64,000 nt of DNA from Gammaproteobacteria bacterium (GTDB lineage: Bacteria > Pseudomonadota > Gammaproteobacteria > Ga0077536): the NCBI GenBank assembly GCA_021773835.1, contig JAJFJQ010000062.1:207322-271321 (forward strand). Reading direction: 5' to 3'. Of the stretch, positions 1 through 53,909 are shown in pieces. Below the pieces are notes generated by a model. The model did no database searches. It worked only from the letters and a program-made list of their open reading frames with translations, and was not told the origin of the DNA. Every line of letters begins with the position of its first letter. Position 1 is the stretch's first letter. The translations under genes were made by a program, and so were the position numbers.

Positions 1-3000
1 CTGACACGTTTACGACAAGCGCAGCTGATGCTGGCGGTATCACCGGCGGGATCACGCTCAGCTATACGAGTTTCGAGACCCTCGGCGGCGGCGGCGGCGA
101 CGATATATTCGATATCGATCATAGCGTGACCTCAGCGAGCGGTGACGCCGGCGCGGATACTTTTAATCTCGACACGGCGCTGGTCAGTATTAGTGGCGGT
201 CTATTTGGAGGCGACAACGGCGATACCTTTAATATCCGCGCGAACGTCGCAACCGACATCGACGGCGGGCTCGGCGATGACATCGTCAACGTCGACCCGG
301 GCGGTACGGGCGGTATCGTGTTGACGGGCGATGTGTCCGGCGGCGACAACGATGACACGATTAATATCGGTATGCCGACCATGACACCACCTGCCGCGCT
401 CCCATCTTCGTCGAGGATCGTCGGTCAGGTCGATGGTGGTGCGGGCGACGATACGCTCGACTACACCGGTTCAAGCCATGCGATGGTAGTCACCGTAACC
501 GGCCCCGGGACAAGCGGTAACAATCTGGAGTTTACCGGTGCTACGACCGCGGTTGATGCTGCTGGTGACGACGTACTCAACATCGACACCGTCGATGACA
601 ACAGGCTTGGCACGTTAATTGGTCCGAATGAGGACACAACCTGGACTATCACCGGCACGAACAGCGGCATGTTTCAAGGTATCAGTGCCGCGCTGCCGAC
701 GTCGTTCACGAATTTTCAAATTGTCGGTCTCGGTGGGGCCGATACGTTTATTTTCCAAGACCTAGGACAAATCGTCGGACTTGCCGGCGGACCTGGAGTC
801 GTTGGCGGCGGCGTCACAGGTGTCGGCGTCGATTCAATCGTGGTCGCGGCGACCGGCGCATTGGGTCCGGCAAGCGAAGATATTGTTCTGACCGCTTCAG
901 ATGAAGGAACAATCACGACGACCGCTGGTATCACGGAATTTGATCTTATTCAGGCTATCGTCGGTAACGATGGATCCGGGACTGTGTTGGTGCAGTCGGC
1001 GTGGGCCGGTAGTGTCGACGGCGGCACCGGCGGCAGCACAATTGTTTGGACGGCGCTCGGCGATCAGAGCGTTACCCTAAGCGGTGGAGGAACCAGTGGT
1101 GTTGGATTTGCTGGTAGCACAGCCACGATTGCGATGGGCTTCGACAACATTACCGGACTCACAAATCCAGGCACAACCTCCACTGCAAGCCTCACTGGCA
1201 CCAATAGCGCCGCTGCGACCAACACGTGGACGATAATGAGCGACGGTGTGGTGGATATGGGCTCCGTGAGTCTCGACGGCGGCGGGCCGCTGACGTTGAA
1301 CTTCGTGGAGTTCGACAATCTTACCGGCCGCGACGATCCGGACACCTTTACCATCAGTGGTCTACACAGCGGCAATATCAGTGGTGGTAACGTCGGAACG
1401 AATAATTTCGTTTTCACCGGGATCCCAGCGACCAGTTTCATCACTGGCAGCGTTAATGGCGGTAGTGGCGTTGACGTGCTCGACTATTCGGGATTCGGTA
1501 CTGCGATCGCGATCAGCCTGACCGGCGGGACCATTGCGGACGGCTATGACGGCAATGACGGCGCTGCCACGATCAGTTCCGGGTTTAACAACATGGACGA
1601 TATCCGTGGCAATCTGACCATGGCGAATAGTTTTACTGGCATTCCTGGGCAAGATGCTACCTGGACAATTACCGCTACCGATGGGTTCGATTATGATCCG
1701 GCCTCAGCCGCCTTGCCGTTAATCAGCCTAAGCGGTTTTGCGAATTTAACCGGCAGCGCCGCCAATGACACGTTCATCATCACAACCGGTGATGTTGATT
1801 CGATCGACGGTGGCGCTGGAATCGACACATTGAGTCACAATGGCAACGCCGGGCCGATCGCGGTTGCGCTGACTGCGCTTGGTACAAGCAACGGGTTCAT
1901 GGGCATGAGCACTGACATCTCCGGTATGTTCAATAATATAAACCGGCTCGAGGGCAGTGCGAACACAGGTGATTCGTTGACTGGCGTTCCATCCGGTGTT
2001 GCTGCTAGCGCAACGTGGACGTTGGACGGCACCACTTATACGGCGGGCGGTCGAACCTTGACGTTTATTGGTGTCGACGATAGCCCATTTCTGGGTGACC
2101 CTCCTGGTGTTTATGAGGCCATAGAGAATCTCATTGGCAACGACGGCGCGGATACGTTTAATGTAACTGCTGATCGAACCGGCGATATCACCGGCGGTGC
2201 TGGTAACGACGTCGTCAACTTAGCTGCCTTACTCACCGGCAGCGTAATGCTCGGCGCCGGCAACGACACGTTGAACTTTATCGGTACCGGTATGATTGTT
2301 GGTGCGGGCAACATCGCCGATGGTGGTACGGAAATCGCAAGCCCGCCTGGCGATACCATAGATTGGTCCCTATCGAGTGTCGATCCAGTTGCACTGAGTC
2401 TGGTGGATATTACCGATCCCACAAGCATTGACGGGACCTTGAGCCTCGTTGATGGTGGCGCCGCCGGGGGGCTTGCCGAGTTTGAATCATTCTTCACGAA
2501 CAGTACGTCGACCTTGCTCGGCCCGGATACGGCGATAACCTATACCATCACCGGCCCCAATACGTTTTTCATCGATATTGGCGCGATGCCAACCTTCAGT
2601 GGATTCAGCAGCATCACTGGCGGGACCTTGAACGACACGTTTAGTTTTATGCCCGGCGGGTCATTGTCTGGGGATATTGATGGCGGCGGTGGGGTGAATA
2701 GCATCGTCACCGCGGTACTCGCCGCAGCGCCAACCGGTAATTTCTTTTTGACCACGGGCGCTAATTCTGGACGGCTCGGTACGATAGACGTTTTTCCTGT
2801 TGGTACCCCAGTTTTCGGGACTTTAGGCGGCACCTGGACGAACATCACCAACCTAACCGGAGGGACCGGAATCGACGTTTTCACGATTACCGGCGGAACT
2901 GCGTTTGCCGGTTTGATGGACGGTGGCGGCGGGATAGACGCTATCCGTGCTGATAACCTCACGAATACTTGGAATCTGCTTGGTGTCGGTAGCGGTAACA

Positions 3001-5435
3001 TCGGCGGCGTTGGGAGTAATAATTTTGTCAATATGTTGCGCGGAATCGGCGGAACAGGCGCAGATACCTTCGTATTTAATGACGGGGCATCGCTAGATTC
3101 GCTCGATGGTTTAGGTGGTACCGATACGCTCGACTACTCCGCAGTATCGACCCCCATTACAGTAAATCTGGCTACAAATAATGCGTCGTTGCTGACTTTT
3201 GCCGGTGGTAATGCAATCAATATTGAAGCGGTTGTGGGTACAGGGGGCGGGGGTGACACACTCATTGGTGAAAACAATAACAATAGCTGGATTGCCACGG
3301 CCCCTGGAATCGGAACAGTCGACGGCTTTGCCTATTCCGCAATTGAAAATATCTCCGGTGGAACGGCCATCGACAGCTTCCTGATTGGCGCCGCGGGTCG
3401 GGTAACGGGCAACCTCAATGGCGGCGGCGGCATCGATACGATCACCCAGAGCTTCGCCAGTAATTGGGTGATCACCTCTCCAAACGCGGGTACGACCGAC
3501 GGCGTTTTAGGTACGTTCGCGGGGGTCGAAAATTTGACCGCGACCGGTTCGACCGCAAACCTCGATATGGACGGTGGATCTATCTCCGGTCGTTACACCG
3601 CGACAACAGTCACCTTGAACGTCGACGGCACCAGCGTAACCGGGGGCACGCCGGTTGATGTCGCGGGTAATCTTGCCGCGAGCGCCAACCAGACCATTAC
3701 CACCGGCGGCGGTGCATTCGCTGTAAGCGGTACGCTGACGGGTACCGGCGCCGGGTTCAACGTCAATACAGGCGGCGGTACCGTAACCGTTAATGGTGCG
3801 ACCAACGCGAACAGCCTTATCGTAAATTCAGGCGGTTCGAATTTTGGCGCCGTTACCACAACCGGTGTGCAGACTTACGGCGGCTCGACGACGTTCAGAG
3901 GCGATCTCACTGGCAGTAACCTAACTTTCAATGGGACCTCGACGTTTAATGGCAACCACCTCCTACAGTCGAGCACCAACGTCTGGGATTTTAATGGAGA
4001 GGTATTGGGAACCGGCAACCTCGATATCATCCCCACCGCCAACACCGATATTTTTATTGGGAACGGTAATGGCCCGGGTAACATCGCGTCGAGTCGATTC
4101 GGCGGATTCCAAGGACATTTGATTGTCGGCGCCCAATTGGATCCCTTAGATTCACCGGCGGAAGAAGCCGTGGTAGTCATGCCGCCTGGGGTGACCGCGG
4201 ATCTCATTACCGTTGAGGAAAATTTTCTCGTAGGCGGTGACGTTACCTTGATCGGAAGCAACATCATGCTCGATTCGGGTATATCCGGCGGGGCCGGAAC
4301 TGGCCAGGTTACTCTAATTGCAGTTGGCGACTCGCAGGGTACCGGCGGCGAAGGTCCTGGCGATATCATCGGGCCGACTGGCGGTACTGCGATTATTGGC
4401 GGCAACAAGGCCGTACTAGTTGCAAATAATGGGATAGTGAATGCAGGGAATATTCGGTTGGACCTAGATGCTGGTGAGCTATTCCTCGCGGTATCCGCTT
4501 CGCAAGACGAGCCAACGTTCGACGCAAGCAGTAGCGCGACGTCGGTAAGTTTCGACCCGACGACAATTGCGATCATTGCGAGTCTCGGTTTGAATCTCCA
4601 ATCGGTACAGGTGGTCTTCAGCAACCCGGCCTCGGCCTTGACCGGTTTGCAGAATGTGCAGTTCATCGACGTCGGCCTGTTCGAGGAAGAACTGAGTCTG
4701 TTTGGCGTTATCGGTAATGGCATCGCGTTATCGCTCGATCAGTGCGAGGAAGCCGAAGGTTGCGCACCAAACGTGAGCGAAGAAGAAATCGATGCATTGA
4801 TCGCCCAAATCGAGGGAAGGATCTCAGAAATAGAACGTCGCCTCGCTTCCGGTGAGATCGACTCAGCGGAAGGGCAGCGCCTGCTGGCTGGTTTCCAACA
4901 GGAGCTACAAAATTATCAAACCTACAAAGAGCAGTTAGCGGCGTTCAACGAATCGCAACTTGAGTTTGGTGACGATTTCGGTGAACTGGATGATTTCGCC
5001 GAGGAGTTTGACGATGCCGAACCGATTGATGATGTATCTCCGACGGATACGACCGATATCGAAGCACCGCAAATAGCTGCGCCGGCACCGGAGCCGGAAG
5101 CGGAGCCGATGGAGGAGGCATTCGAAGAGCTGGAAGACGAATTTATTGAACAAGAGATCCCGGTCGATGAGTTCGAGGACCTCGAGGAAGACCTTGAAGA
5201 AGACTTTCCTGAGTTGGACGACGTCCTGGAAGAGGCGCCCGATGAGTTTGAAGACTTGGATGAGGAATTTGACGAATTTGAAGAACTCGGGAAGGAAATC
5301 GATCCTGCCTTACTTTTGCGGTTGACGCAGAATGCCAACGTAAACGAATACCGTGGGGCGCTCGGGATTGGCATGGATGGCCGGGTAGTATGGACCGGTG
5401 ACATCATATTGCCCTCGTATGCACGGCAATATTGA
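1..5435 (+). CDS. Giant secreted repeat protein, 5'-partial. It has RTX-like Ca-binding GGxGxD/DGGxGxDTLDY motifs, Gly/Thr/Asn-rich beta-helix-like repeats, a C-terminal coiled coil and a poly-acidic tail.
   Basis: The reading frame is open from nt 3 with no stop upstream of the tracked GTG at 126, so the N-terminus lies outside the window. It ends at TGA 5433-5435. The translation has dozens of DGG(A/S/G)G(x)DTLDY(S/T)G and GGAGND motifs, plus long stretches such as TGTGAGFNVNTGGGTVTVNGATNANSL. The last ~330 aa are heptad-like (EIDALIAQIEGRISEIERRL...) followed by ~170 aa that are about half Asp/Glu. Confidence 0.8.
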   Translation, partial: DTFTTSAADAGGITGGITLSYTSFETLGGGGGDDIFDIDHSVTSASGDAGADTFNLDTALVSISGGLFGGDNGDTFNIRANVATDIDGGLGDDIVNVDPGGTGGIVLTGDVSGGDNDDTINIGMPTMTPPAALPSSSRIVGQVDGGAGDDTLDYTGSSHAMVVTVTGPGTSGNNLEFTGATTAVDAAGDDVLNIDTVDDNRLGTLIGPNEDTTWTITGTNSGMFQGISAALPTSFTNFQIVGLGGADTFIFQDLGQIVGLAGGPGVVGGGVTGVGVDSIVVAATGALGPASEDIVLTASDEGTITTTAGITEFDLIQAIVGNDGSGTVLVQSAWAGSVDGGTGGSTIVWTALGDQSVTLSGGGTSGVGFAGSTATIAMGFDNITGLTNPGTTSTASLTGTNSAAATNTWTIMSDGVVDMGSVSLDGGGPLTLNFVEFDNLTGRDDPDTFTISGLHSGNISGGNVGTNNFVFTGIPATSFITGSVNGGSGVDVLDYSGFGTAIAISLTGGTIADGYDGNDGAATISSGFNNMDDIRGNLTMANSFTGIPGQDATWTITATDGFDYDPASAALPLISLSGFANLTGSAANDTFIITTGDVDSIDGGAGIDTLSHNGNAGPIAVALTALGTSNGFMGMSTDISGMFNNINRLEGSANTGDSLTGVPSGVAASATWTLDGTTYTAGGRTLTFIGVDDSPFLGDPPGVYEAIENLIGNDGADTFNVTADRTGDITGGAGNDVVNLAALLTGSVMLGAGNDTLNFIGTGMIVGAGNIADGGTEIASPPGDTIDWSLSSVDPVALSLVDITDPTSIDGTLSLVDGGAAGGLAEFESFFTNSTSTLLGPDTAITYTITGPNTFFIDIGAMPTFSGFSSITGGTLNDTFSFMPGGSLSGDIDGGGGVNSIVTAVLAAAPTGNFFLTTGANSGRLGTIDVFPVGTPVFGTLGGTWTNITNLTGGTGIDVFTITGGTAFAGLMDGGGGIDAIRADNLTNTWNLLGVGSGNIGGVGSNNFVNMLRGIGGTGADTFVFNDGASLDSLDGLGGTDTLDYSAVSTPITVNLATNNASLLTFAGGNAINIEAVVGTGGGGDTLIGENNNNSWIATAPGIGTVDGFAYSAIENISGGTAIDSFLIGAAGRVTGNLNGGGGIDTITQSFASNWVITSPNAGTTDGVLGTFAGVENLTATGSTANLDMDGGSISGRYTATTVTLNVDGTSVTGGTPVDVAGNLAASANQTITTGGGAFAVSGTLTGTGAGFNVNTGGGTVTVNGATNANSLIVNSGGSNFGAVTTTGVQTYGGSTTFRGDLTGSNLTFNGTSTFNGNHLLQSSTNVWDFNGEVLGTGNLDIIPTANTDIFIGNGNGPGNIASSRFGGFQGHLIVGAQLDPLDSPAEEAVVVMPPGVTADLITVEENFLVGGDVTLIGSNIMLDSGISGGAGTGQVTLIAVGDSQGTGGEGPGDIIGPTGGTAIIGGNKAVLVANNGIVNAGNIRLDLDAGELFLAVSASQDEPTFDASSSATSVSFDPTTIAIIASLGLNLQSVQVVFSNPASALTGLQNVQFIDVGLFEEELSLFGVIGNGIALSLDQCEEAEGCAPNVSEEEIDALIAQIEGRISEIERRLASGEIDSAEGQRLLAGFQQELQNYQTYKEQLAAFNESQLEFGDDFGELDDFAEEFDDAEPIDDVSPTDTTDIEAPQIAAPAPEPEAEPMEEAFEELEDEFIEQEIPVDEFEDLEEDLEEDFPELDDVLEEAPDEFEDLDEEFDEFEELGKEIDPALLLRLTQNANVNEYRGALGIGMDGRVVWTGDIILPSYARQY

Positions 5436-16271: not shown

Positions 16272-16608
16272 AATTAAGCTGTTCCGGTTAAGAGCCTGCC
16301 ATTCTAAGTAATTATCCACGTTTAGGGATTCTAGATTTGAAGGTAGCGCCAAGGTGTTGATCCAGTGCCCGAAATGCGAACCCGAATATGCCTATGAATA
16401 ATGAATGGTGCACCGCGCCTTGAAGGTCTCCGAATGTTTCTTATACTCAATAAGAAGACAAATAATAATGCGCTGGAAGTGATTCGATCATCCTGAGGTT
16501 TGTGTCCTGAGTGGAACGACTCGCGATACACGCAAAAGCGCTAAACCAGAGCCCTGGGATCAGTGCCGAACCTTCCCCCGCGAATCTCATTCGAGGGAGG
16601 CCGTTTTT

Positions 16609-18657
16609 ATGCCCAACTACACCACTCAAGATATTCGCAACGTCGCATTGGTCGGCGGAGCCAATACGGGAAAAACGATGCTGGTGGACGCGTTGTTCGC
16701 GGCCGCCGGCGCCATCAAAATTAAGGGGCAGATCGAGCGGGGCACGACTATCTGCGACTACACGCCGCAGGAAAAAAGCGTGCGTCATTCCCTTGATTGC
16801 TCGGTCGCCAGCCTCGATTACGATGGAAAGCATCTGAACCTCATCGATACCCCGGGGGCCGCAGACTTTATCGGCCGATCCATTTCCGTCTTACCCGCGG
16901 CCGAGACCGTCGCGGTGGTGATCGACGCACGCGCTGGGCCCGATTTGGTGGCCAAGCGAATGATGGATTGGGCACGCGACCGTGGATTGGATCGCATTGT
17001 TATCGTAAACCATATTGATGCTGCGCCCGATGGACTTGAGGCGTGCCTGAATCAAATTCAAGAGAGTTTCGGGCCGGAGTGTCTCCCAATCAATCTACCT
17101 GCGCAGCAGGCGACTGAGGTGGTCGACTGCTTTTTTAAACCAAATGGCGCCGCTACTGATTTTTCGAGTGTCGCCGACGCCCATTCCCGGCTCGTCGATC
17201 AGGTCGTAGAGGTCGATGACGAACTAATGGAACTCTACCTCGAGCAGGGGGAGGAATTGGGCCCGGAGCAATTGCATGACCCATTTGAGAAAGCACTGCG
17301 GGAGAATCATCTAGTACCAGTGTGTTTTACGTCGGCCGAAAGCGACGCCGGTATCAATCAGTTGCTGGAAATAATCTGCCGACTGATGCCCAATCCAAAC
17401 GAAGGTAATCCACCAGATTTTTTTCGTGGCGACGGTGACATCGGGGACCCCATCCATTTCACGCCGGATCCGAACGCCCATATCCTTGCTCACACCTTTA
17501 AGGTAAATATCGATCCCTTTGTAGGCCGGTTGAGTATTTTCCGAATTCACCAAGGCACGGTATCCAAGGACAAACAACTTGTCGTCGGTGATGGGCGCCG
17601 CGCGTTTCGTGTTAGCCATTTATTCAAGCTTACCGGCGGTGAGACCAGCGAAATAGATGCGGGGATCCCGGGCGATATCTGCGCCATCGCCAAGGTAGAC
17701 GACATCGAAATTGATTCGGTGTTGCATGACTCGCATGACGAAGACGAAATCCATTTGCGCTCAATTAACCTGCCGGTCCCAATGCAGAGCGTCGCGGTTA
17801 AGGCGAAAAGCCGCGGCCAAGAGCAGAAACTATCCGACGCCCTGCACAAGATCCAAGCCGAGGACCCGAGCATTAACATCGAGCACGATCATGCGCAAAA
17901 TCAAACCATCGTCCACGCGCTCGGCGAGCTGCATTTGCGCGTGGTTCTCGAAGCACTAAAGGAACGTTTCAATGTTGACATTGAGACCAGCCCGCCGCGC
18001 ATTGCTTATCGTGAAACGATCACAACGCCGGCCGAAGGACATTATCGCCACAAGAAGCAAACCGGCGGTGCCGGCCAGTTTGGCGAGGTTTCCCTGCGCG
18101 TTAAACCGATGCGCCGCGGGACTGGTTTTCGTTTCAATAACGAGGTGGTCGGGGGCGCTATTCCGCGCCAATTCATACCGGCAGTTGAGAAAGGCGTGCG
18201 TCAAGCGATGAGCCAAGGTGTTATCGCTGGATATCCGATAGAGGATGTGGAAGTGACGGTCTATGACGGTAAACATCACCCGGTGGATTCGAAAGAGGTC
18301 GCCTTCGTCGCCGCCGGCAAGCGCGCATTCATGGCGGCGATTGAACAAGCGGAGCCTGCTATCCTTGAACCCATTATCGACTTGCATATCAGTTTGCCGT
18401 CGGCGAATGTCGGCGATATCACCGGCAATTTAGCGTCGCGTCGCGGTCGCATCAACGAGACGACCGCCCTGGAGGACGGTCGCAGTAGCGTCAGTGCACA
18501 GCTACCATTGGCAGAGCTCGAAGGTTACCAATCCCATTTACACGCTATGACCTCAGGCGCCGGCAGCTTTACCGTCGATTTCAATCGTTATGATGTGGTC
18601 CCTGCGCGGATGCAGAAAGAACTAGCGGCTGAGTTTAAAGAGGCGCTCAAGCATTGA
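16609..18657 (+). CDS. Elongation factor G-family GTPase paralog with divergent catalytic motifs
   Basis: 682 aa. The P-loop GGANTGKT is intact. Switch II reads DTPGAADF and G4 reads NHID. EF-G domain II to V-like features continue to the C-terminus. Confidence 0.85.
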   Translation: MPNYTTQDIRNVALVGGANTGKTMLVDALFAAAGAIKIKGQIERGTTICDYTPQEKSVRHSLDCSVASLDYDGKHLNLIDTPGAADFIGRSISVLPAAETVAVVIDARAGPDLVAKRMMDWARDRGLDRIVIVNHIDAAPDGLEACLNQIQESFGPECLPINLPAQQATEVVDCFFKPNGAATDFSSVADAHSRLVDQVVEVDDELMELYLEQGEELGPEQLHDPFEKALRENHLVPVCFTSAESDAGINQLLEIICRLMPNPNEGNPPDFFRGDGDIGDPIHFTPDPNAHILAHTFKVNIDPFVGRLSIFRIHQGTVSKDKQLVVGDGRRAFRVSHLFKLTGGETSEIDAGIPGDICAIAKVDDIEIDSVLHDSHDEDEIHLRSINLPVPMQSVAVKAKSRGQEQKLSDALHKIQAEDPSINIEHDHAQNQTIVHALGELHLRVVLEALKERFNVDIETSPPRIAYRETITTPAEGHYRHKKQTGGAGQFGEVSLRVKPMRRGTGFRFNNEVVGGAIPRQFIPAVEKGVRQAMSQGVIAGYPIEDVEVTVYDGKHHPVDSKEVAFVAAGKRAFMAAIEQAEPAILEPIIDLHISLPSANVGDITGNLASRRGRINETTALEDGRSSVSAQLPLAELEGYQSHLHAMTSGAGSFTVDFNRYDVVPARMQKELAAEFKEALKH

Positions 18658-18687: not shown

Positions 18688-19224
18688 TCAACCAGATCGG
18701 GCCGCCGTACCCTTTACGATTTCCATCGTGTTGCCGGCACTACTGGTCTCTGCGGCGGTTTCGATCGCGCCCGCGTGTAGTACCGGTGCCGCGTCGATAT
18801 CCTCAGCGCCCATCAGCGACGCCAGCCGTTGTAAGGCAGCCAACACGAACGATTGCTCCCAAGCTTCGAGCGCGCTGAAGCGACGGTCGAGCAAGTCCTG
18901 CAAGGTTTTCGGTGCATCGCGAATGAGTTTTCTGCCGGCGGCCGTTGGCGAAACAATAACGCGACGTTTGTCTTCTTCGCCGCGATGTTTGTCGACCAAC
19001 CCTTTGCGCTCGAGGCCGTTAACGATCGAGGTTGTTGTGGCTTGGGTCAAATTGATTTCCCTCGCGACTTCACTGACCGTAAGCGAGGTGGCGTCACTGA
19101 TCGCCTGCATCACCAGCAGTTGGGGTGTCGTCAAACCCGTGTCTTTCGCCAATCGTTTCGCACCCATATCGGTCGCCTTATGGATCTGGCGCAGCGCGAT
19201 GAGTAACTCCTGATAATTGTCCAT
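18688..19224 (-). CDS. MarR-family transcriptional regulator
   Basis: Winged-helix region LTQATTTSIVNGLERKGLVDKHRGEEDKRRVIV. Start chosen at MDNYQELL. Confidence 0.8.
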   Translation of the reverse strand: MDNYQELLIALRQIHKATDMGAKRLAKDTGLTTPQLLVMQAISDATSLTVSEVAREINLTQATTTSIVNGLERKGLVDKHRGEEDKRRVIVSPTAAGRKLIRDAPKTLQDLLDRRFSALEAWEQSFVLAALQRLASLMGAEDIDAAPVLHAGAIETAAETSSAGNTMEIVKGTAARSG

Positions 19225-19395
19225 TGTTCTCGCCCGGTGACGACAGCCCAGCATACTACCGGATACTAGGGATCAAATGCAGTGCTGATTTTATTTTGAA
19301 AATCTATGTATATTCATTCGGAAAATTATCGATTTAGTTCATCCTAATTGGCTTAAAAGCGATATTTCGCATCTTTCCGTGCAGTTTTCATTTCG

Positions 19396-19439
19396 AATCC
19401 GAATGTAATATACTTTCGGATTGAAAGTATTATTTCAAT
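19396..19439. promoter_or_regulatory. Two adjacent palindromes (AATCCGAA-N11-TTCGGATT at 19396-19422, and TTGAAA-N6-TTTCAA at 19421-19438) in the MarR / asnB-like divergent intergenic region. Candidate MarR operator.
   Basis: Both are perfect inverted repeats read directly from the sequence. Confidence 0.45.
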
Positions 19440-19500
19440 GGATCCGATCCGGCTCGAATCGATCGGCATCCGCAATTCAACGACTAAAAGGAATTCAACT

Positions 19501-21924
19501 GTGTGTGGAATCGCCGCCGTTTGGGGTGAAGGTGCCCCAAATCTCGCCAATCGTATCGCCGAGCGCATGATGCACCGAGGCCCGGACGGGCATGGTCTGC
19601 AGCAGTCGTCGCAATGCAGGCTGACTCTGGCGCATCGTCGCCTTGCGATCATTGATCCAGTGGGCGGAAAACAGCCACTTGCTGCCCCGGAAAACAGCGC
19701 GATGCTGGTCGCCAATGGCATGATTTACAACGATATCGCGCTGCGGCAGTCGCTCAACGGCGATGTCTTCGTTACGTCCTCGGACTCGGAGTCCATCCTA
19801 CGTCACTGCGTGCGGCGGGGAACCGCTGGTGTCTCCGATCTCGATGGGATGTTTGCATTCGTTATGGAACACGACGGCAGGCTAATCGCCGCACGCGACC
19901 CGGTTGGGATCAAACCGCTTTATGTCGGTCGCCGCGGCAACACATTCTGTTTCGCGTCCGAAATCAAGCCGCTCCTGCCCGAGGTCGACGAGATACACGA
20001 GTTTCCTCCAGGCCACGTATTCGATTCCAAGGTCGGGCTCCGGCGCTACTACGCGTTACCTGAGGCGTCCGACGACCTGGGTAAGTCAGATGCGGCGCTG
20101 GCGGCTATTCGACACACTTTGACCCGTGCGGTAGAAAAGCGTCTTCGCTCGGATGTGCCGCTTGGCGTGTTTCTCTCCGGCGGCCTCGATTCGAGCCTAA
20201 TTGCCGCCATCGCAAGTCAGCTTCGACCGGGACTGAAAACCTTTGCCGTCGGTCTTGACGGTAGCCCTGATCTCGTAGCAGCCCGGCGCGTGGCCGCACA
20301 CCTTGGGACTGATCATTATGAGTCGATATTGTCGGCCGAAGCGGTCATGCGTGATCTACCGCGCATCCTCTACCATCTAGAATCATTCGACCGTGATCTC
20401 GTGCGCAGCGCGGTGCCGTGCTATTACGTCTCGAAGCTCGCCTCCGAACACGTCAAGGTCGTCCTTACTGGCGAGGGTGCGGATGAAATATTCGCGGGCT
20501 ACACCTACCATAAATCATACGCCGACCCGGACGCGCTCCAGGCGGAGTTGCGCCGCTCCGTGCTGAGTATGCATGACATCAACCTGCAGCGGGTGGATCG
20601 CATGACCATGGCGCACGGCTTGGAGGCGCGGGTCCCGTTTCTCGATCGTGAAATGTTGGCCCTCGCATTCCGTATACCCGCTTCACTTAAGTTACCGCCC
20701 GAGACGCAGATCGAAAAATGGATCCTGCGCAAGGCGTTTGAGGATTTGTTGCCGCACGAGATCGTCTGGCGCAACAAACAACAGTTTGATCAGGGCAGCG
20801 GTATAGCGGATCTGCTGGAATCGGTTACGGCCGGTGCGCCGGCACAAATGGCAGACGCATTGCCAAAACAGGGGCGCGACGCCGAGGAAGCGCTCTATCG
20901 CCGACAGTTGGCCGAACAGCTCGACGAACCCGCAAAGCTCCTCGAACTCGTTACCCACTGGGAAAGTGATCATCGCGTCGAGCAGGTGCCAGCGGATCGA
21001 TTTTCCGTCACCGCGATCAACAAGACGGTGAAAGACGATAAGGCTATTGGCGACGTCGCCCTGGACGATTTCAGCGGCCTCTATGATCTACCCTCGCCGC
21101 GGCCGTATTTTGGACGCATGGCCAAGCTCGACTACCGCATACCCGAGGCAGCCGCCAACATCTATCGATGGTGTATTGATGAACTGCGCCGAATCAACGA
21201 CACCGCGGAACTAACGGTACTCGATCTTTGCGCTGGCTATGGTGTCAACGGTGCGCTGATGCAGTTAGATAAGTCGTTGGACGAAATTTACGCGCATTTC
21301 TCCGAGGCCCCTGCTACCACACGATCCGACCAGCTATTCGATCGACTTACGCTGGCGCCGCAGCGTAGCGATGCGGCGTTGAACATTGTCGGGATAGACG
21401 TCGCCGCTAACGCGCTCGCTTGCGCGCGTGATACCGGGTTCATTACCGAAGGGCACGCCGTCAATCTAGAAACGCAAGCGCTGCCCGAGGAGCTTGGGGA
21501 GTCCATCGCACGTTGTTCGCTCATTACGATCACCGGTGGATTCAGCTTTATCGGGAGCGCGACGTTCGACAAGATCCTATCTGCCGTACCGAACTCGTCG
21601 CCAAAACCGTGGATCGTAGGCTTTCCGTTACTGCATACGGATCTCGAACCGATAGTGGATGTGTTACACAACCACGGCTATGTTATCCAGCCGGGACTAC
21701 AATACCGTTATCTACAGCGGCGGTTTGCAAGCGATCGCGAACGCGACAACGAGCGGACCGCGCTCGCCGCCTCCGATTTAAACACAATTGCCGAAGACTA
21801 TTTTGAATCACGTCTACTGCTTGCCCAGCCTCCGTGTGGTCCACAAATACCTGTCGAAGTACTGGATCTTGATGCCATCGGAGACGGTGAACCGACGGTG
21901 GATTCCCGACGCTGGGCATCCTGA
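19501..21924 (+). CDS. Asparagine synthase (glutamine-hydrolysing)-like amidotransferase fused to a C-terminal Rossmann/methyltransferase-like domain
   Basis: GTG at 19501, preceded by AAAAGGA, gives the N-terminal MCGIAAVWGEG (Ntn Cys). The PP-loop SGGLDSS is present. The C-terminal ~270 aa contain VLDLCAGYGVNG and NIVGIDVAANALACA. Confidence 0.8.
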   Translation: MCGIAAVWGEGAPNLANRIAERMMHRGPDGHGLQQSSQCRLTLAHRRLAIIDPVGGKQPLAAPENSAMLVANGMIYNDIALRQSLNGDVFVTSSDSESILRHCVRRGTAGVSDLDGMFAFVMEHDGRLIAARDPVGIKPLYVGRRGNTFCFASEIKPLLPEVDEIHEFPPGHVFDSKVGLRRYYALPEASDDLGKSDAALAAIRHTLTRAVEKRLRSDVPLGVFLSGGLDSSLIAAIASQLRPGLKTFAVGLDGSPDLVAARRVAAHLGTDHYESILSAEAVMRDLPRILYHLESFDRDLVRSAVPCYYVSKLASEHVKVVLTGEGADEIFAGYTYHKSYADPDALQAELRRSVLSMHDINLQRVDRMTMAHGLEARVPFLDREMLALAFRIPASLKLPPETQIEKWILRKAFEDLLPHEIVWRNKQQFDQGSGIADLLESVTAGAPAQMADALPKQGRDAEEALYRRQLAEQLDEPAKLLELVTHWESDHRVEQVPADRFSVTAINKTVKDDKAIGDVALDDFSGLYDLPSPRPYFGRMAKLDYRIPEAAANIYRWCIDELRRINDTAELTVLDLCAGYGVNGALMQLDKSLDEIYAHFSEAPATTRSDQLFDRLTLAPQRSDAALNIVGIDVAANALACARDTGFITEGHAVNLETQALPEELGESIARCSLITITGGFSFIGSATFDKILSAVPNSSPKPWIVGFPLLHTDLEPIVDVLHNHGYVIQPGLQYRYLQRRFASDRERDNERTALAASDLNTIAEDYFESRLLLAQPPCGPQIPVEVLDLDAIGDGEPTVDSRRWAS

Positions 21925-46544: not shown

Positions 46545-46619
46545 TGGTGGGCGATACTGGGATCGAACCAGTGACCCCTGCCGTGTGAAGGCAGTGCTCT
46601 CCCGCTGAGCTAATCGCCC
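46545..46619 (-). tRNA. tRNA-Val (anticodon CAC)
   Basis: The reverse complement GGGCGATTAGCTCAGCGGGAGAGCACTGCCTTCACACGGCAGGGGTCACTGGTTCGATCCCAGTATCGCCCACCA folds as a cloverleaf, with CCA encoded. Confidence 0.85.
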
Positions 46620-47503: not shown

Positions 47504-48913
47504 ATGTCCGTCGTTACCCGTTTCCCACCCAGCCCTACCGGCTACCTACACGTCGGTAGTGTACGCACCGCCTTATTTAATTGGCTTTACGCGCGCAAAG
47601 TGGGTGGTAAGTTTATCCTACGCATCGAAGACACCGACCGCGCGCGTTCAAGCCAGGAGGCGGTGGATATTATTTTTGCGGGCATGGAATGGCTTGGCCT
47701 CGACTACGACGAAGGGCCGTATTTTCAGACGCAACGCTTCGATCGCTATGGCGAAGTGATTGAGCAATTACTCGCGCAAGATAAGGCCTACCATTGTTAC
47801 TGTTCAAAAGACCGCCTCGAAACACTGCGCGCAGAGCAAATGGCGCAAAAACTGAAGCCGCGCTATGACGGTCGATGTCGAGATCGAATAGGTGCGCCGC
47901 CTCAGGGTATTGCGCCGGTTGTTCGCTTGAAGACGCCGCGAGAAGGTGCGGTAGCGATCGAGGATAAAGTGCACGGCTATATAACGACCAGCAATTTAGA
48001 ACTCGACGACCTTGTAATTTCGCGTTCCGACGGTACGCCAACCTACCATCTGACGGTTGTCGTCGACGATATCGACATGGGCGTTACCCATATCATCCGC
48101 GGCGACGATCACATTAACAACACACCGCGCCAAGTTCACATCATCGAAGCACTTGATGCGCCGCGTCCGCTTTATGCGCATGTACCGATGATCAATGGCG
48201 CGGACGGTAAAAAATTGTCGAAACGCCATGGCGCCGTGAGCGTGCTCGAATTTCGCGAACAGGGATTCCTACCCGATGCGCTCACGAACTATTTAGCTCG
48301 CCTCGGCTGGGCACATGGCGATCAAGAAATATTCACCCGCGCTGAACTCATCAACGCGTTTGATTTCGATGGCTTAAACAAATCAGCCGCAACCTTCGAT
48401 TGGGACAAGCTCTTATGGCTGAACCAACAGTACATACAAAACGCTGAACCGGCAGCGCTGCTGGCATTGGCCGCACCATACCTCGAGAGTGCGCAGCTGC
48501 AGCTCGACAAAGGCCCGGATATCGCCGCGGCGGTTGAAGCGCAGCGCACTAGAGCGAAGACCTTGGTCGAGATTGCCGAGCAAAGCCATATGTTCTACGG
48601 TGAATTCATACGCGATGAAGCCGCCGCCAAGAAACATCTGCGGCCGGTTATCGGGCCCGCTTTAAAGGCGATCCAAGGAAAGTTCGCCGCCGTTGAGACG
48701 TGGCATGGAACAGAGCTTAAAGACATCGTTGAGCAGACGGCGGCAGAATTCGATATGAAGATGGGCAAAGTTGCGCAGCCCCTGCGCGTCGCTGTGACGG
48801 GGTCGTCTGCGTCGCCTTCGATCGACACCACGCTCGAACTGATTGGCCGTGAACGTTGCTTGGAGCGTCTCGATGCAGCACTTATTTACATCGCTGAGCG
48901 TGCGGTTGCTTGA
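47504..48913 (+). CDS. gltX: Glutamyl-tRNA synthetase
   Basis: 469 aa with HVGSVRTALFNWLYARK (HIGH region) and KLSKRHG (KMSKS). Confidence 0.95.
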   Translation: MSVVTRFPPSPTGYLHVGSVRTALFNWLYARKVGGKFILRIEDTDRARSSQEAVDIIFAGMEWLGLDYDEGPYFQTQRFDRYGEVIEQLLAQDKAYHCYCSKDRLETLRAEQMAQKLKPRYDGRCRDRIGAPPQGIAPVVRLKTPREGAVAIEDKVHGYITTSNLELDDLVISRSDGTPTYHLTVVVDDIDMGVTHIIRGDDHINNTPRQVHIIEALDAPRPLYAHVPMINGADGKKLSKRHGAVSVLEFREQGFLPDALTNYLARLGWAHGDQEIFTRAELINAFDFDGLNKSAATFDWDKLLWLNQQYIQNAEPAALLALAAPYLESAQLQLDKGPDIAAAVEAQRTRAKTLVEIAEQSHMFYGEFIRDEAAAKKHLRPVIGPALKAIQGKFAAVETWHGTELKDIVEQTAAEFDMKMGKVAQPLRVAVTGSSASPSIDTTLELIGRERCLERLDAALIYIAERAVA

Positions 48914-49038: not shown

Positions 49039-49114
49039 GGGGCCATAGCTCAGCTGGGAGAGCGCCGCAATGGCATTGCGGAGGTCGGCGGTTCGATCCC
49101 GCCTGGCTCCACCA
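49039..49114 (+). tRNA. tRNA-Ala (anticodon GGC)
   Basis: GGGGCCATAGCTCAGCTGGGAGAGCGCCGCAATGGCATTGCGGAGGTCGGCGGTTCGATCCCGCCTGGCTCCACCA. A G3:U70 wobble pair is present. Confidence 0.85.
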
Positions 49115-53833: not shown

Positions 53834-53909
53834 GTCCCCATCGTCTAGAGGCCTAGGACACTGCCCTTTCACGGCGGCAACAGGGGTTCGAATCCCCTTG
53901 GGGACGCCA
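53834..53909 (+). tRNA. tRNA-Glu (anticodon TTC)
   Basis: GTCCCCATCGTCTAGAGGCCTAGGACACTGCCCTTTCACGGCGGCAACAGGGGTTCGAATCCCCTTGGGGACGCCA. Confidence 0.9.

Follow-up and report, generated by a model that had tools for sequence, protein, structure and literature searches.

The window, by which we mean the whole 64 kb stretch of DNA analysed, carries on its + strand an open reading frame of 682 codons and a stop codon (16609..18657, ATG start) that encodes an elongation factor G (EF-G) paralog of the EFGII, or EF-G2, type. A strong Shine-Dalgarno sequence, GGGAGG (16595..16600, + strand), can be read 8 nt upstream of the ATG, and GGAG-type sites lie upstream of the start codons of most EFGII family members. 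The neighbours are DUF2269 and DUF4166 genes, a saccharopine dehydrogenase-like gene, an AsnB-like gene and, downstream of the EF-G paralog on the other strand, a MarR-family gene (18688-19254). Adjoining rpsL, rpsG or tuf genes are absent, which places the gene outside the str operon, the loci of E. coli, Paenibacillus and Legionella serving for comparison. A further EF-G-like gene was not found within the 64 kb, which come from a 455-kb contig. Both results agree with the original prediction of a standalone gene with no fusA, rpsL or rpsG context. EFG II is reported always to occur with another EF-G in the genome, usually EFG I (PMC3150367), and the EFGII paralog would work alongside a canonical EF-G whose gene lies at another place in the genome.

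Upstream region and gene neighbourhood

A block of ~100 nt upstream of the gene (16400-16497) is conserved with a relative. It contains a predicted sigma-70-like promoter, TTGAAG-16-TATACT (16420..16447, + strand); in two relatives of 71-75% identity, TTGAAG-N17-TATAAT is found 266-272 nt upstream of the ATG. A perfect inverted repeat, TTCTTAT-N5-ATAAGAA (16438..16456, + strand), overlaps the -10 box and is a candidate operator. The repeat is identical in one relative (L091) and was not found in the wider EFGII family, and the pattern of promoter and leader is confined to the closest clade. A leader RNA element was considered and rejected: the predicted leader of 160 nt has no Rfam match even at E<=5, the whole window has none at gathering thresholds, and the fold z-score is -1.45.

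The ten neighbouring genes were compared by tblastn with 80 loci of the family, and none was recovered (0/80 for MarR, DUF2269, DUF4166 and the rest). When 704 flanking ORFs were clustered de novo, no family turned up in more than 6 of the 80 loci, and no operon partner or shared regulator emerged. The MarR gene, to which the original prediction drew attention, does adjoin the paralog in the window and is not a constant companion of it: besides its absence from the 80 other loci, its site is occupied by an IS66 element in a relative of 93% identity. The promoter block and the inverted repeat are unchanged in that relative, and no further copy of the repeat motif was found close to MarR. A role of MarR as the cognate regulator was therefore rejected. 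Neither a conserved neighbour nor a known regulator points to the condition under which the paralog is used.

Domain architecture and G-domain motifs

All five EF-G domains were matched in the 682-residue protein by Pfam (GTP_EFTU, EF-G_D2, EFG_III, EFG_IV and EFG_C), which bears out its description as a full-length EF-G paralog. Beyond the G domain, the approximate boundaries (all on the + strand) are residues 281-387 for domain II (17449..17769; PF22042 / PF03144), 388-462 for domain III (17770..17994; PF14492), 463-584 for domain IV (17995..18360; PF03764, E 2e-41) and 585-682 for domain V (18361..18654; PF00679). T. thermophilus EF-G (1efg) matches the protein with an E value of 9e-115 in HMMER, and the identity to canonical EF-G is about 30% over the full length. 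The AF2 model (pLDDT 83.5) aligns with EF-G and EF-G2 chains across about 690 columns, i.e. as a whole-chain fold match, with TM scores of 0.84-0.88: 0.88 for ribosome-bound Bacteroides EF-G2 (Bt EF-G2, 8dmf), 0.85 for Mycobacterium EF-G2 (Msm EF-G2, 9k0z) and 0.84 for Thermus EF-G2 (Tth EF-G2, 1wdt).

Compared with canonical EF-G (fusA of the str operon, TIGR00484), the window protein is without AHxDAGKT, RGITI, DTPGH and the Lys of NKxD. Its P-loop (G1), with the codons read directly, is GGANTGKT (G16-T23; 16654..16677, + strand). The Walker A is intact, as in the original prediction; in the MAFFT alignment, however, Gly, Ala and Asn stand where the translational GTPase (trGTPase) motif AHxDAGKT has its His, Ile and Asp. 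In switch I (G2), VRHSL (16780..16794, + strand) stands in place of RGITI and has the signature xxHSL. Ser61 falls at the Mg-coordinating Thr position of RGITI, and His60 at the position of the hydrophobic-gate Ile; both gate residues are replaced in the beta/gamma EFGII family, the other one being reduced to Gly or Ala. Switch II (G3) reads DTPGAADF (D80-F87; 16846..16869, + strand), with Ala84 (GCC, 16858-16860) at the position of the catalytic His. In G4, NHID (N134-D137; 17008..17019, + strand), the Asn and Asp are kept and His135 (CAT, 17011-17013) occupies the Lys position of NKxD. G5 is TSA (S242, A243; 17329..17337, + strand), with S in 116/120 and A in 101/120 homologs.

The two replacements on which the original prediction was built are column-aligned. 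In HMMER, 'idtpgaadf' falls on 'idtpghvdf' and 'ivnhid' on 'fankmd' of 1efg, and MAFFT gives the same columns when TetM/TetO and the EF-Gs of E. coli, Paenibacillus, Legionella and Thermus are aligned. The picture of two losses in an otherwise conserved EF-G scaffold had to be abandoned. Since the P-loop AHxDAGKT and the switch I RGITI are also replaced, the scaffold is, judged by its motifs, a divergent EFGII G domain and not a canonical one with two isolated changes, and the changes are family-wide.

The residues that bind GTP and Mg are all kept (K22, T23, S61, D80, G83, N134, D137 and S242-A243), which makes nucleotide binding with poor hydrolysis, as originally proposed, a reasonable inference; it also matches the experiments on Msm and Bt EF-G2. 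A further suggestion, altered nucleotide specificity, fares less well. The Asn of G4 (Asn134) is found in 113/120 and the Asp (Asp137) in 120/120 homologs, and with the Ser-Ala of G5 conserved as well, the protein probably still recognises guanine. Only the Lys is relaxed, to K/R/Q/H.

Classification and conservation within the EFGII family

Of the NCBIfam models, NF009891 was passed (964.7 bits vs a cutoff of 597), whereas canonical EF-G (TIGR00484; 453.2 vs 659.4 bits) and the Tet model (NF012153; 272.2 vs 775) were failed. Also failed were the actinobacterial EF-G2 model NF009377 (537.3 vs 890 bits) and the Bacteroides EF-G2 model NF058620 (473.1 vs 1000), i.e. those of both characterised GTPase-deficient families, the Msm type and the Bt type. 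Reference proteins behaved as expected when scored with these models; for NF009891, a Paraburkholderia member scores 1061.8, and E. coli EF-G (554.5) and Tth EF-G2 (591) stay below the cutoff. In a neighbour-joining tree (200 bootstraps, distance-based only), the EFGII family groups with Msm EF-G2 at 100% bootstrap, and a clade of all EFGII-type proteins, in which Tth EF-G2 and the alphaproteobacterial copies also fall, is set apart from the str-operon EF-Gs at 72-76%. The alignment and tree proposed as a check thus place the protein with the EF-G2s of Thermus (DAPGY), Mycobacterium (DTPGY) and Bacteroides (DCPGS, NQLD). With the G domain alone as the query against the PDB, only Tth, Msm and Bt EF-G2 are found at E<1e-20.

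The xxHSL motif is the G2 signature of the beta/gamma-proteobacterial EFG II sub-subgroup, EFG II as a whole relaxing RGITI to xxxSx (Margus et al. 2011, PMC3150367), and the EFGII P-loop has been given as GhxxxGKT, in which Gly replaces the cation-binding Asp (Atkinson 2015, PMC4342817). The sub-subgroup (PMC3150367, PMC4342817, NF009891) has the same five-domain EF-G architecture with G', the same xxHSL, a GxxxxGKT P-loop without the trGTPase Asp, and DxPG without His; it likewise lies outside the str operon and has well conserved domains IV and V, and nothing in the comparison with the window protein excludes membership. The gene is thus very probably an EFGII (EF-G2) member of the beta/gamma-proteobacterial sub-subgroup, NF009891, as far as sequence can assign it.

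Conservation was followed in 200 relatives, namely the 120 closest proteins (full-length homologs, 60-100% identity to the window protein) and 80 loci analysed from the at least 599 relatives confirmed in a genome scan. Among named relatives, the nearest are MAGs of uncultured Gammaproteobacteria, Chromatiales and Steroidobacteraceae. Cultured hosts with an ortholog include Ralstonia pickettii (chr2), Paraburkholderia sprentiae (pl1) and Sedimenticola selenatireducens. The 80 loci are mostly from Gamma- and Betaproteobacteria, and among the matches listed are Ralstonia, Paraburkholderia, Variovorax, Luteimonas, Rhodanobacter and sulfur-oxidising symbionts; the scan shows a chromosomal family, widespread among environmental Proteobacteria.

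G21, K22 and T23 are invariant in the 120 homologs. The P-loop Asp position is G107 N8 S4 A1, the window carrying the rarer Asn here; at the 'h' position it has a Gly where the P-loop usually has His. In switch I, H is present in 118/120, S in 119/120 and L in 118/120 homologs, and HS[LI] in 72/80 genome loci. DTPG is invariant in the 120 closest proteins, and the next residue, position 84, is Y82 A20 S16 L1 F1 there and Y52 A6 M5 F5 L5 S4 G2 H1 in the 80 loci, i.e. a single His among the 200 relatives; the loss of the His, to which the original prediction pointed, is common to the EFGII/EF-G2 subfamily. The Lys position of G4 is also variable (K42 R32 Q29 H15 in the homologs and K52 R20 G6 Q1 H1 in the loci). 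NKxD was described as conserved in EFG II by Margus et al.; in the beta/gamma sub-subgroup the Lys is kept in only 35-65%. Ala at the switch-II His position occurs in 20/120 homologs, His at the G4 Lys position in 15/120, and both together in 10/120; by these residues the window's clade is the degenerate end of the EFGII family. The subfamily itself was already described in 2007-2011 and is poorly understood, and the window gene is an ordinary member of it.

The gene is under strong purifying selection. Against one relative, at a dS of about 0.95, near saturation, dN/dS comes to 0.043 for the whole gene and 0.057 for the G domain. The original prediction had named a pseudogene as a possible refutation, and a decaying, non-functional fusA copy would be in keeping with the loss of the canonical catalytic residues. 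The reading was rejected because of the low dN/dS and is hardly credible: the frame is open over its full length, the homologs and confirmed relatives are numerous (120 of full length, at least 599 in all), and the Shine-Dalgarno sequence and promoter are conserved.

Among the domains, conservation is highest in domain IV (mean column identity 0.83 in the 120 homologs). Its tip loops, KKQTGGAGQFGEV (482-494) and GKHHPVDSKE (554-563), are of the EF-G type and invariant in these homologs, and canonical EF-G has the same five domains and the same tip residues (GGxGQ[YF]G and H-x-VDS). This speaks against the ribosome-protection-like factor of the original prediction, i.e. an antibiotic-resistance protein of the Tet(M)/Tet(O) kind. 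There is distant homology to the Tet proteins (E 1e-43), the Bt EF-G2 chain bears the PDB label 'Tetracycline resistance protein TetQ', and a MarR-type regulator adjoins the gene. TetM/TetO, however, keep AHVDAGKT, RGITI, DTPGH and NKID, and their domain IV loops are E[EV]PPNPFWAS and GLYYSPVST, compared with QTGGAGQFGE and GKHHPVDSK in the window protein. The Tet proteins also root outside the whole EF-G/EFGII clade in the tree, the Tet model is failed (272 vs 775 bits), the MarR gene is not conserved with the paralog, and the family is a chromosomal one of environmental Proteobacteria. Such a role is very improbable.

Possible mode of action on the ribosome

The switch-II His, three P-loop residues (His, Ile and Asp) and RGITI, which canonical translational GTPases use when the ribosome activates hydrolysis, are by alignment missing from the window protein. 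We favour, with some reserve, the reading in which this EFGII member binds GTP and the ribosome, has weak or no GTP hydrolysis, and serves as a slow translocase or stress factor. The factor would bind the ribosomal factor site in a GTP-dependent conformation, with domain IV entering the A site as that of EF-G does and with hydrolysis being weak or absent, and its role would be that of an accessory, slow, energy-saving translocase or of a ribosome-bound stress factor. The first of these roles, slow translocation independent of hydrolysis, is drawn by analogy and is tentative, falling somewhat short of probable. The behaviour proposed is that reported for the Bacteroides and Mycobacterium EF-G2. 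In the literature, no functional or biochemical study of the beta/gamma EFGII sub-subgroup was found, the one match being C. metallidurans fusA2, mentioned in a genome paper only.

Bt EF-G2 (fusA2, BT2167; PDB 7uvp/8dmf) shows the same pair of changes, with DCPGS (His to Ser) and NQLD (Lys to Gln), together with a GSSGSGKT P-loop and YGYSV instead of RGITI. According to the passage of PMC10294740 that cites Han et al. 2022, it has no GTPase and enables GTP-independent, slow translation; it is induced by carbon starvation (PMC10294740, PMC6989115). EFGII has also been reported to be able to replace EF-G, at a much slower rate (PMC4342817). With relatives that carry the same changes translocating slowly (PMC4342817; PMC10294740), the original conclusion that the protein is not a translocase does not follow. 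As a model for the window protein Bt EF-G2 is a distant one, being only about 30% identical and, with 718 residues, 36 residues longer, and its regulator, Cur/BT4338, is Bacteroides-specific. Its properties, as studied by Han et al. in 2022, are reportedly due in part to a 26-residue region of its own.

Msm EF-G2 (PDB 9k0z/9k10) is closer. It is the best PDB sequence match (389.8 bits, 34% identity) and the sister in the neighbour-joining tree, and its motifs DTPGY, GPSGGGKT and QQRSV depart from the canonical P-loop, G2 and G3 in a similar manner. Its G4, TKLD, has lost the Asn and kept the Lys, the opposite of the window protein, and it has no switch-I His. Ribosome-dependent GTPase activity is absent from Msm EF-G2 (Seshadri 2009, as summarised in PMC3150367; bioRxiv 10.64898/2026.05.25.727771), and the H88Y change nearly abolishes the GTPase of Msm EF-G1 (bioRxiv 10.64898/2026.05.25.727771). 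The same preprint describes Msm EF-G2 as a stress factor on the non-rotated 70S and not a translocase, with no recycling and no stabilisation of rotated ribosomes; the characterised GTPase-deficient relatives therefore differ in role. Msm EF-G2 has also been treated by Baid & Sengupta 2025.

The window protein could, by the same token, be a stress-specific, non-translocating factor that binds 70S or 50S in the non-rotated state, with its G domain displaced from the sarcin-ricin loop, and modulates or parks ribosomes under stress. The match to Msm EF-G2, its place as tree sister, the shared motif changes and its reported binding to non-ratcheted 70S without GTPase or recycling activity all agree with this reading. 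Against it, conservation in the family is strongest in the tip loops of domain IV, by which tRNA and mRNA are contacted, and this would be hard to explain if the loops were held away from the tRNA. The protein moreover fails the actinobacterial EF-G2 model (537 vs 890 bits), and other EFGII members translocate. We consider such a factor rather unlikely.

The third solved relative, Tth EF-G-2 (PDB 1wdt/2dy1; Connell et al. 2007), is the top PDB match for the window G domain alone. It has DAPGY in switch II, a GHAGSGKT P-loop, HRTTV in switch I with no RGITI, and TKLD as G4. Despite a Tyr at the His position, which we confirmed in its sequence, it is able to bind GTP, to hydrolyse it and to sustain poly(Phe) synthesis (PMC3150367); the loss of the His alone is therefore no proof of GTPase loss. 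This example also allows for an active GTPase with a different catalytic arrangement, in which His60 or another residue takes over from the switch-II His in a GTP-consuming alternative translocase or recycling factor. His60 is near-invariant (118/120), both hydrophobic-gate residues are replaced, and the L7/L12-contacting acidic patch of G' is conserved, with E201, D203 and E212 invariant (PMC3150367). The active example has Thr and not His at the His60 position, however; the P-loop Asp that binds a monovalent cation cofactor is also lost (PMC4342817), and residue 84 is free to vary (Y/A/S/L/F/M/G), which fits a position without a catalytic role. Catalysis of this kind is less probable than a stress-specific factor, and weak or absent hydrolysis remains the preferred reading. 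It is more doubtful still that His60 might be a relocated catalytic or gamma-phosphate-sensing residue, with GTP hydrolysis or sensing by a mechanism undescribed for translational GTPases, or, more broadly, that the beta/gamma sub-subgroup may have a ribosome-associated role unlike that of the Bacteroides and Mycobacterium EF-G2. A His60 mechanism, if true, would be comparable to the HAS-GTPases, in which the catalytic residue is supplied from elsewhere.

The window gene alone adds little, as a further EFGII member for which three solved and partly characterised relatives are known. Across the family, the positions of the switch-II His and the G4 Lys drift, whereas the residues that bind GTP and those that contact the A site are fixed, a pattern that favours the view that EF-G paralogs include a whole class working on the ribosome without EF-G-type GTPase activation. 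Such a class bears on bacterial translation when energy is scarce, and its beta/gamma sub-subgroup is very widespread. Current annotation fails to separate EFGII from the essential translocase: NF009891 carries the name 'elongation factor G', and 'fusA' is the annotation given to a Paraburkholderia member, so automated reconstructions can miscount EF-G.

Gene structure and GTPase motifs

The EF-G2 gene is an uninterrupted open reading frame of 682 codons (16609-18657, + strand), with the sequence GGGAGG located eight bases 5' of its ATG start. All five EF-G domains are found by Pfam (GTP_EFTU, EF-G_D2, EFG_III, EFG_IV and EFG_C). The codons, read from the DNA, give the P-loop GGANTGKT (16654-16677, +), the switch II sequence DTPGAADF (16846-16869, +), where Ala84 is GCC at 16858-16860, and the G4 motif NHID (17008-17019, +), where His135 is CAT at 17011-17013. 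When aligned by HMMER with T. thermophilus EF-G (E 9e-115), the protein has DTPGA opposite DTPGH and VNHID opposite ANKMD; a MAFFT alignment that included TetM/TetO and the EF-Gs of E. coli, Paenibacillus, Legionella and Thermus assigns both substitutions to the same columns. The replacement of the catalytic His and the G4 Lys described in the original prediction is therefore real, but, as was not noted there, the remaining catalytic apparatus is also non-canonical: AHxDAGKT has become GGANTGKT, and RGITI has become VRHSL. Three sets of residues are missing: the switch-II His; three P-loop residues (His, Ile and Asp), which in the canonical type make contacts with the sarcin-ricin loop and with the cation cofactor; and, from RGITI, Arg, Gly and Ile.

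In the sequence, the residues for GTP-Mg binding and gamma-phosphate sensing (K22, T23, S61, D80, G83) and for guanine recognition (N134, D137, S242, A243) are kept. Since Asn and Asp of G4 are retained, the altered nucleotide specificity proposed earlier is unlikely. At the hydrophobic-gate Ile position the family has a nearly invariant His, the switch-I His60, and the gate residue in the P-loop has become Gly or Ala. That His60 is a relocated catalytic or sensing His is conceivable but, judged from sequence, improbable; the active T. thermophilus EF-G2 has Thr where the family has His60, and no compensating change was seen in family members devoid of it.

Variation and placement of the family

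A search of 5.8 billion proteins yielded 120 full-length homologs (60-100% identity), mostly from Gammaproteobacteria. The P-loop G, K and T, DTPG, the G4 Asn and Asp, and the G5 Ser-Ala are invariant or nearly so among them. The catalytic His position is Tyr in 82, Ala in 20, Ser in 16, and Leu and Phe in one each (His in 0/120), and the G4 Lys position is Lys in 42, Arg in 32, Gln in 29 and His in 15. The Ala and His pair is found in 10 of the 120 and marks the clade of the studied protein. A genome scan with one genome per species gave at least 600 pattern matches, with 599 confirmed relatives among the matches listed. The 80 loci kept are spread across Gamma- and Betaproteobacteria (Ralstonia, Paraburkholderia, Variovorax, Ramlibacter, Luteimonas, Rhodanobacter, Pseudomonas spp., Sedimenticola, Thiodiazotropha); here the His position reads Y52 A6 M5 F5 L5 S4 G2 H1 and the Lys position K52 R20 G6 Q1 H1. 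The two positions drift freely, whereas the adjacent nucleotide-binding residues are fixed.

The sole His-bearer (DTPGHPDF) among about 200 family sequences, locus L062 (3564-5588) of the MAG 'Planctomycetes bacterium UBA1146', is otherwise family-like (P-loop GHSSAGKT, switch I KHSL), and its His could be a reversion. Together with L014, L023 ('Streptomycetaceae') and L037 (Phycisphaeraceae), it belongs to non-proteobacterial MAG carriers with 51-57% identity, which could reflect horizontal transfer or mis-binning; L037 clusters with Luteimonas in the tree.

Family members are full-length throughout, most with GGAG-type ribosome-binding sites. In the comparison with the relative whose protein is 93% identical (L091), 54% of synonymous sites differ (dS about 0.95, dN 0.040). 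The dN/dS ratio is not elevated, at 0.043 over the full gene and 0.057 within the G domain, which excludes the recent pseudogene considered in the original prediction.

With 964.7 bits the protein clears the cutoff of NCBIfam NF009891 (597), and it fails the models of canonical EF-G (TIGR00484, 453/659 bits), actinobacterial EF-G2 (NF009377, 537/890), Bacteroides EF-G2 (NF058620, 473/1000) and Tet (NF012153, 272/775). Controls run on these models sorted as they should: NF009891 gives 1062 bits to a plasmid copy from Paraburkholderia, NF009379 accepts copies from Rhizobium and Sphingobium plasmids, and TIGR00484 accepts E. coli EF-G together with a copy on a Ralstonia megaplasmid. The EFG II subfamily and its sub-subgroup-specific G2 motifs were defined by Margus et al. 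2011 (PMC3150367), with xxHSL for the gamma- and beta-proteobacterial members (section 13). VRHSL of the studied protein has this form, and H, S and L are found in 118, 119 and 118 of the 120 homologs; the P-loop position of the trGTPase Asp is G107 N8 S4 A1. In a neighbor-joining tree (200 bootstraps, Tet proteins as outgroup) the protein is nested in the beta/gamma family, and the whole EFGII-type clade, including T. thermophilus EF-G2 and alphaproteobacterial copies, is separate from the str-operon EF-Gs with 72-76% support. The protein is very probably an EFGII/EF-G2 member of the beta/gamma-proteobacterial sub-subgroup; the His and Lys substitutions were accurately observed, yet they are a defining character of a known subfamily.

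Annotation of EF-G2-type proteins is inconsistent. The solved B. thetaiotaomicron chain (PDB 7uvp/8dmf) is labelled 'Tetracycline resistance protein TetQ', a Paraburkholderia sprentiae plasmid member (L083, 1498-3552) is 'fusA: elongation factor G', and the entire His-less family goes under 'elongation factor G' in NF009891. The extra fusA of a Ralstonia solanacearum megaplasmid (L085, 1270-3372), standing alone beside a Crp/Fnr regulator, is a different kind of EF-G duplication, fully canonical (AHIDAGKT, RGITI, DTPGH, NKMD; TIGR00484 1191 bits). A literature search for a functional study of the beta/gamma sub-subgroup found none; as this group is large, apparently unstudied by experiment and annotated as plain 'elongation factor G', its recognition has modest practical value.

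Solved relatives and possible mode of action

Searched against the PDB on its own, the G domain hits just three chains at E<1e-20: 1wdt (T. thermophilus EF-G-2), 9k0z (M. smegmatis EF-G2) and 7uvp (B. thetaiotaomicron EF-G2). Like the studied protein, all three lack the catalytic His (DAPGY, DTPGY and DCPGS, respectively), and the B. thetaiotaomicron protein also lacks the G4 Lys (NQLD). The AF2 model (pLDDT 83.5) shows TM values of 0.88 with ribosome-bound B. thetaiotaomicron EF-G2, 0.85 with M. smegmatis EF-G2, 0.84 with T. thermophilus EF-G2, and up to 0.88 with ribosome-bound EF-G. Conservation across the 120-homolog alignment is highest in domain IV (mean column identity 0.83), whose EF-G-type tip loops QTGGAGQFGE and GKHHPVDSK are invariant, and the acidic G' patch is conserved in the family. 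A Tet-like protection factor, as suggested originally, is unlikely: in TetM/TetO every canonical GTPase motif is intact and the domain IV loops differ.

The protein would take up a GTP-dependent conformation, bind the factor site and insert domain IV into the A site in the manner of EF-G, presumably with no activation for fast hydrolysis. Loss of GTPase activity is likely from the motifs but not proven, because T. thermophilus EF-G2, with Tyr at the catalytic His position, still hydrolyses GTP (PMC3150367). A slow, hydrolysis-independent translocase or stress factor is a tentative reading, with somewhat less than an even chance. According to two reports (PMC10294740, PMC6989115), B. thetaiotaomicron EF-G2 has no GTPase activity, 'enables GTP-independent translation' and is induced by carbon limitation, and EFGII is able to stand in for EF-G at a much slower rate (PMC4342817). 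The main rival is a stress factor of the M. smegmatis type, acting without translocation; M. smegmatis EF-G2 joins the family with 100% support in the tree.

Genomic context

The gene lies outside the str operon as a monocistronic unit, and its neighbors bear out the standalone position noted before. According to Margus et al. (PMC3150367), genomes with EFG II always carry another EF-G as well; no second EF-G homolog was found within the 64-kb window. The window neighbors (MarR, DUF2269, DUF4166 and others) occur at 0/80 family loci, and no flanking family is shared by more than 6/80. L091 keeps the upstream DUF2269-DUF4166-saccharopine dehydrogenase genes, and an IS66-family element (TnpB_IS66 and DDE transposase, L091 8243-10500) takes the place of the MarR gene (18688-19254, -); in relatives at 71-75% identity every neighbor is different. 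The MarR adjacency, offered earlier as context, therefore carries no functional signal.

About 100 nt 5' of the gene (16400-16497) are nearly identical to L091, despite the synonymous divergence of the gene itself. Within this block are a predicted promoter, TTGAAG-16-TATACT (16420-16447, +), from which the leader would be about 160 nt long, and a perfect inverted repeat, TTCTTAT-N5-ATAAGAA (16438-16456, +), overlapping the -10 box. The relatives at 71-75% identity share TTGAAG-N17-TATAAT 266-272 nt upstream of the ATG, a pattern absent from the wider family. An Rfam search of the leader gave no match, and its fold z-score is -1.45. A possible four-codon upstream ORF, ATG CGC TGG AAG TGA (MRWK*, 16468-16482), with no obvious SD, is located where the conserved leader starts; L091 has the identical sequence, the comparison locus L094 has MRR*, and L093 has none. 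This ORF may be a coincidence.

Elsewhere in the window, a 1769-aa ORF (126-5435, +), rich in Gly, Thr and Asp, has many GGxGxD-like repeats (such as GGAGNDTL and GGTGADTF), a C-terminal stretch of about 150 aa that is very acidic, and no Pfam match at E<=1e-5; its sequence resembles that of a large secreted protein of the repeat or adhesin type. An 828-aa asparagine synthase-like protein (19438-21924, +; GATase_7 and Asn_synthase) carries ~300 extra C-terminal residues outside the Pfam coverage, with the SAM-methyltransferase-like motif VLDLCAGYGVNG. A glutamyl/glutaminyl-tRNA synthetase-type gene (47504-48913, +) lies between tRNA Val-CAC (46545-46619, -) and tRNA Ala-GGC (49039-49114, +), and tRNA Glu-TTC is found at 53834-53909 (+).
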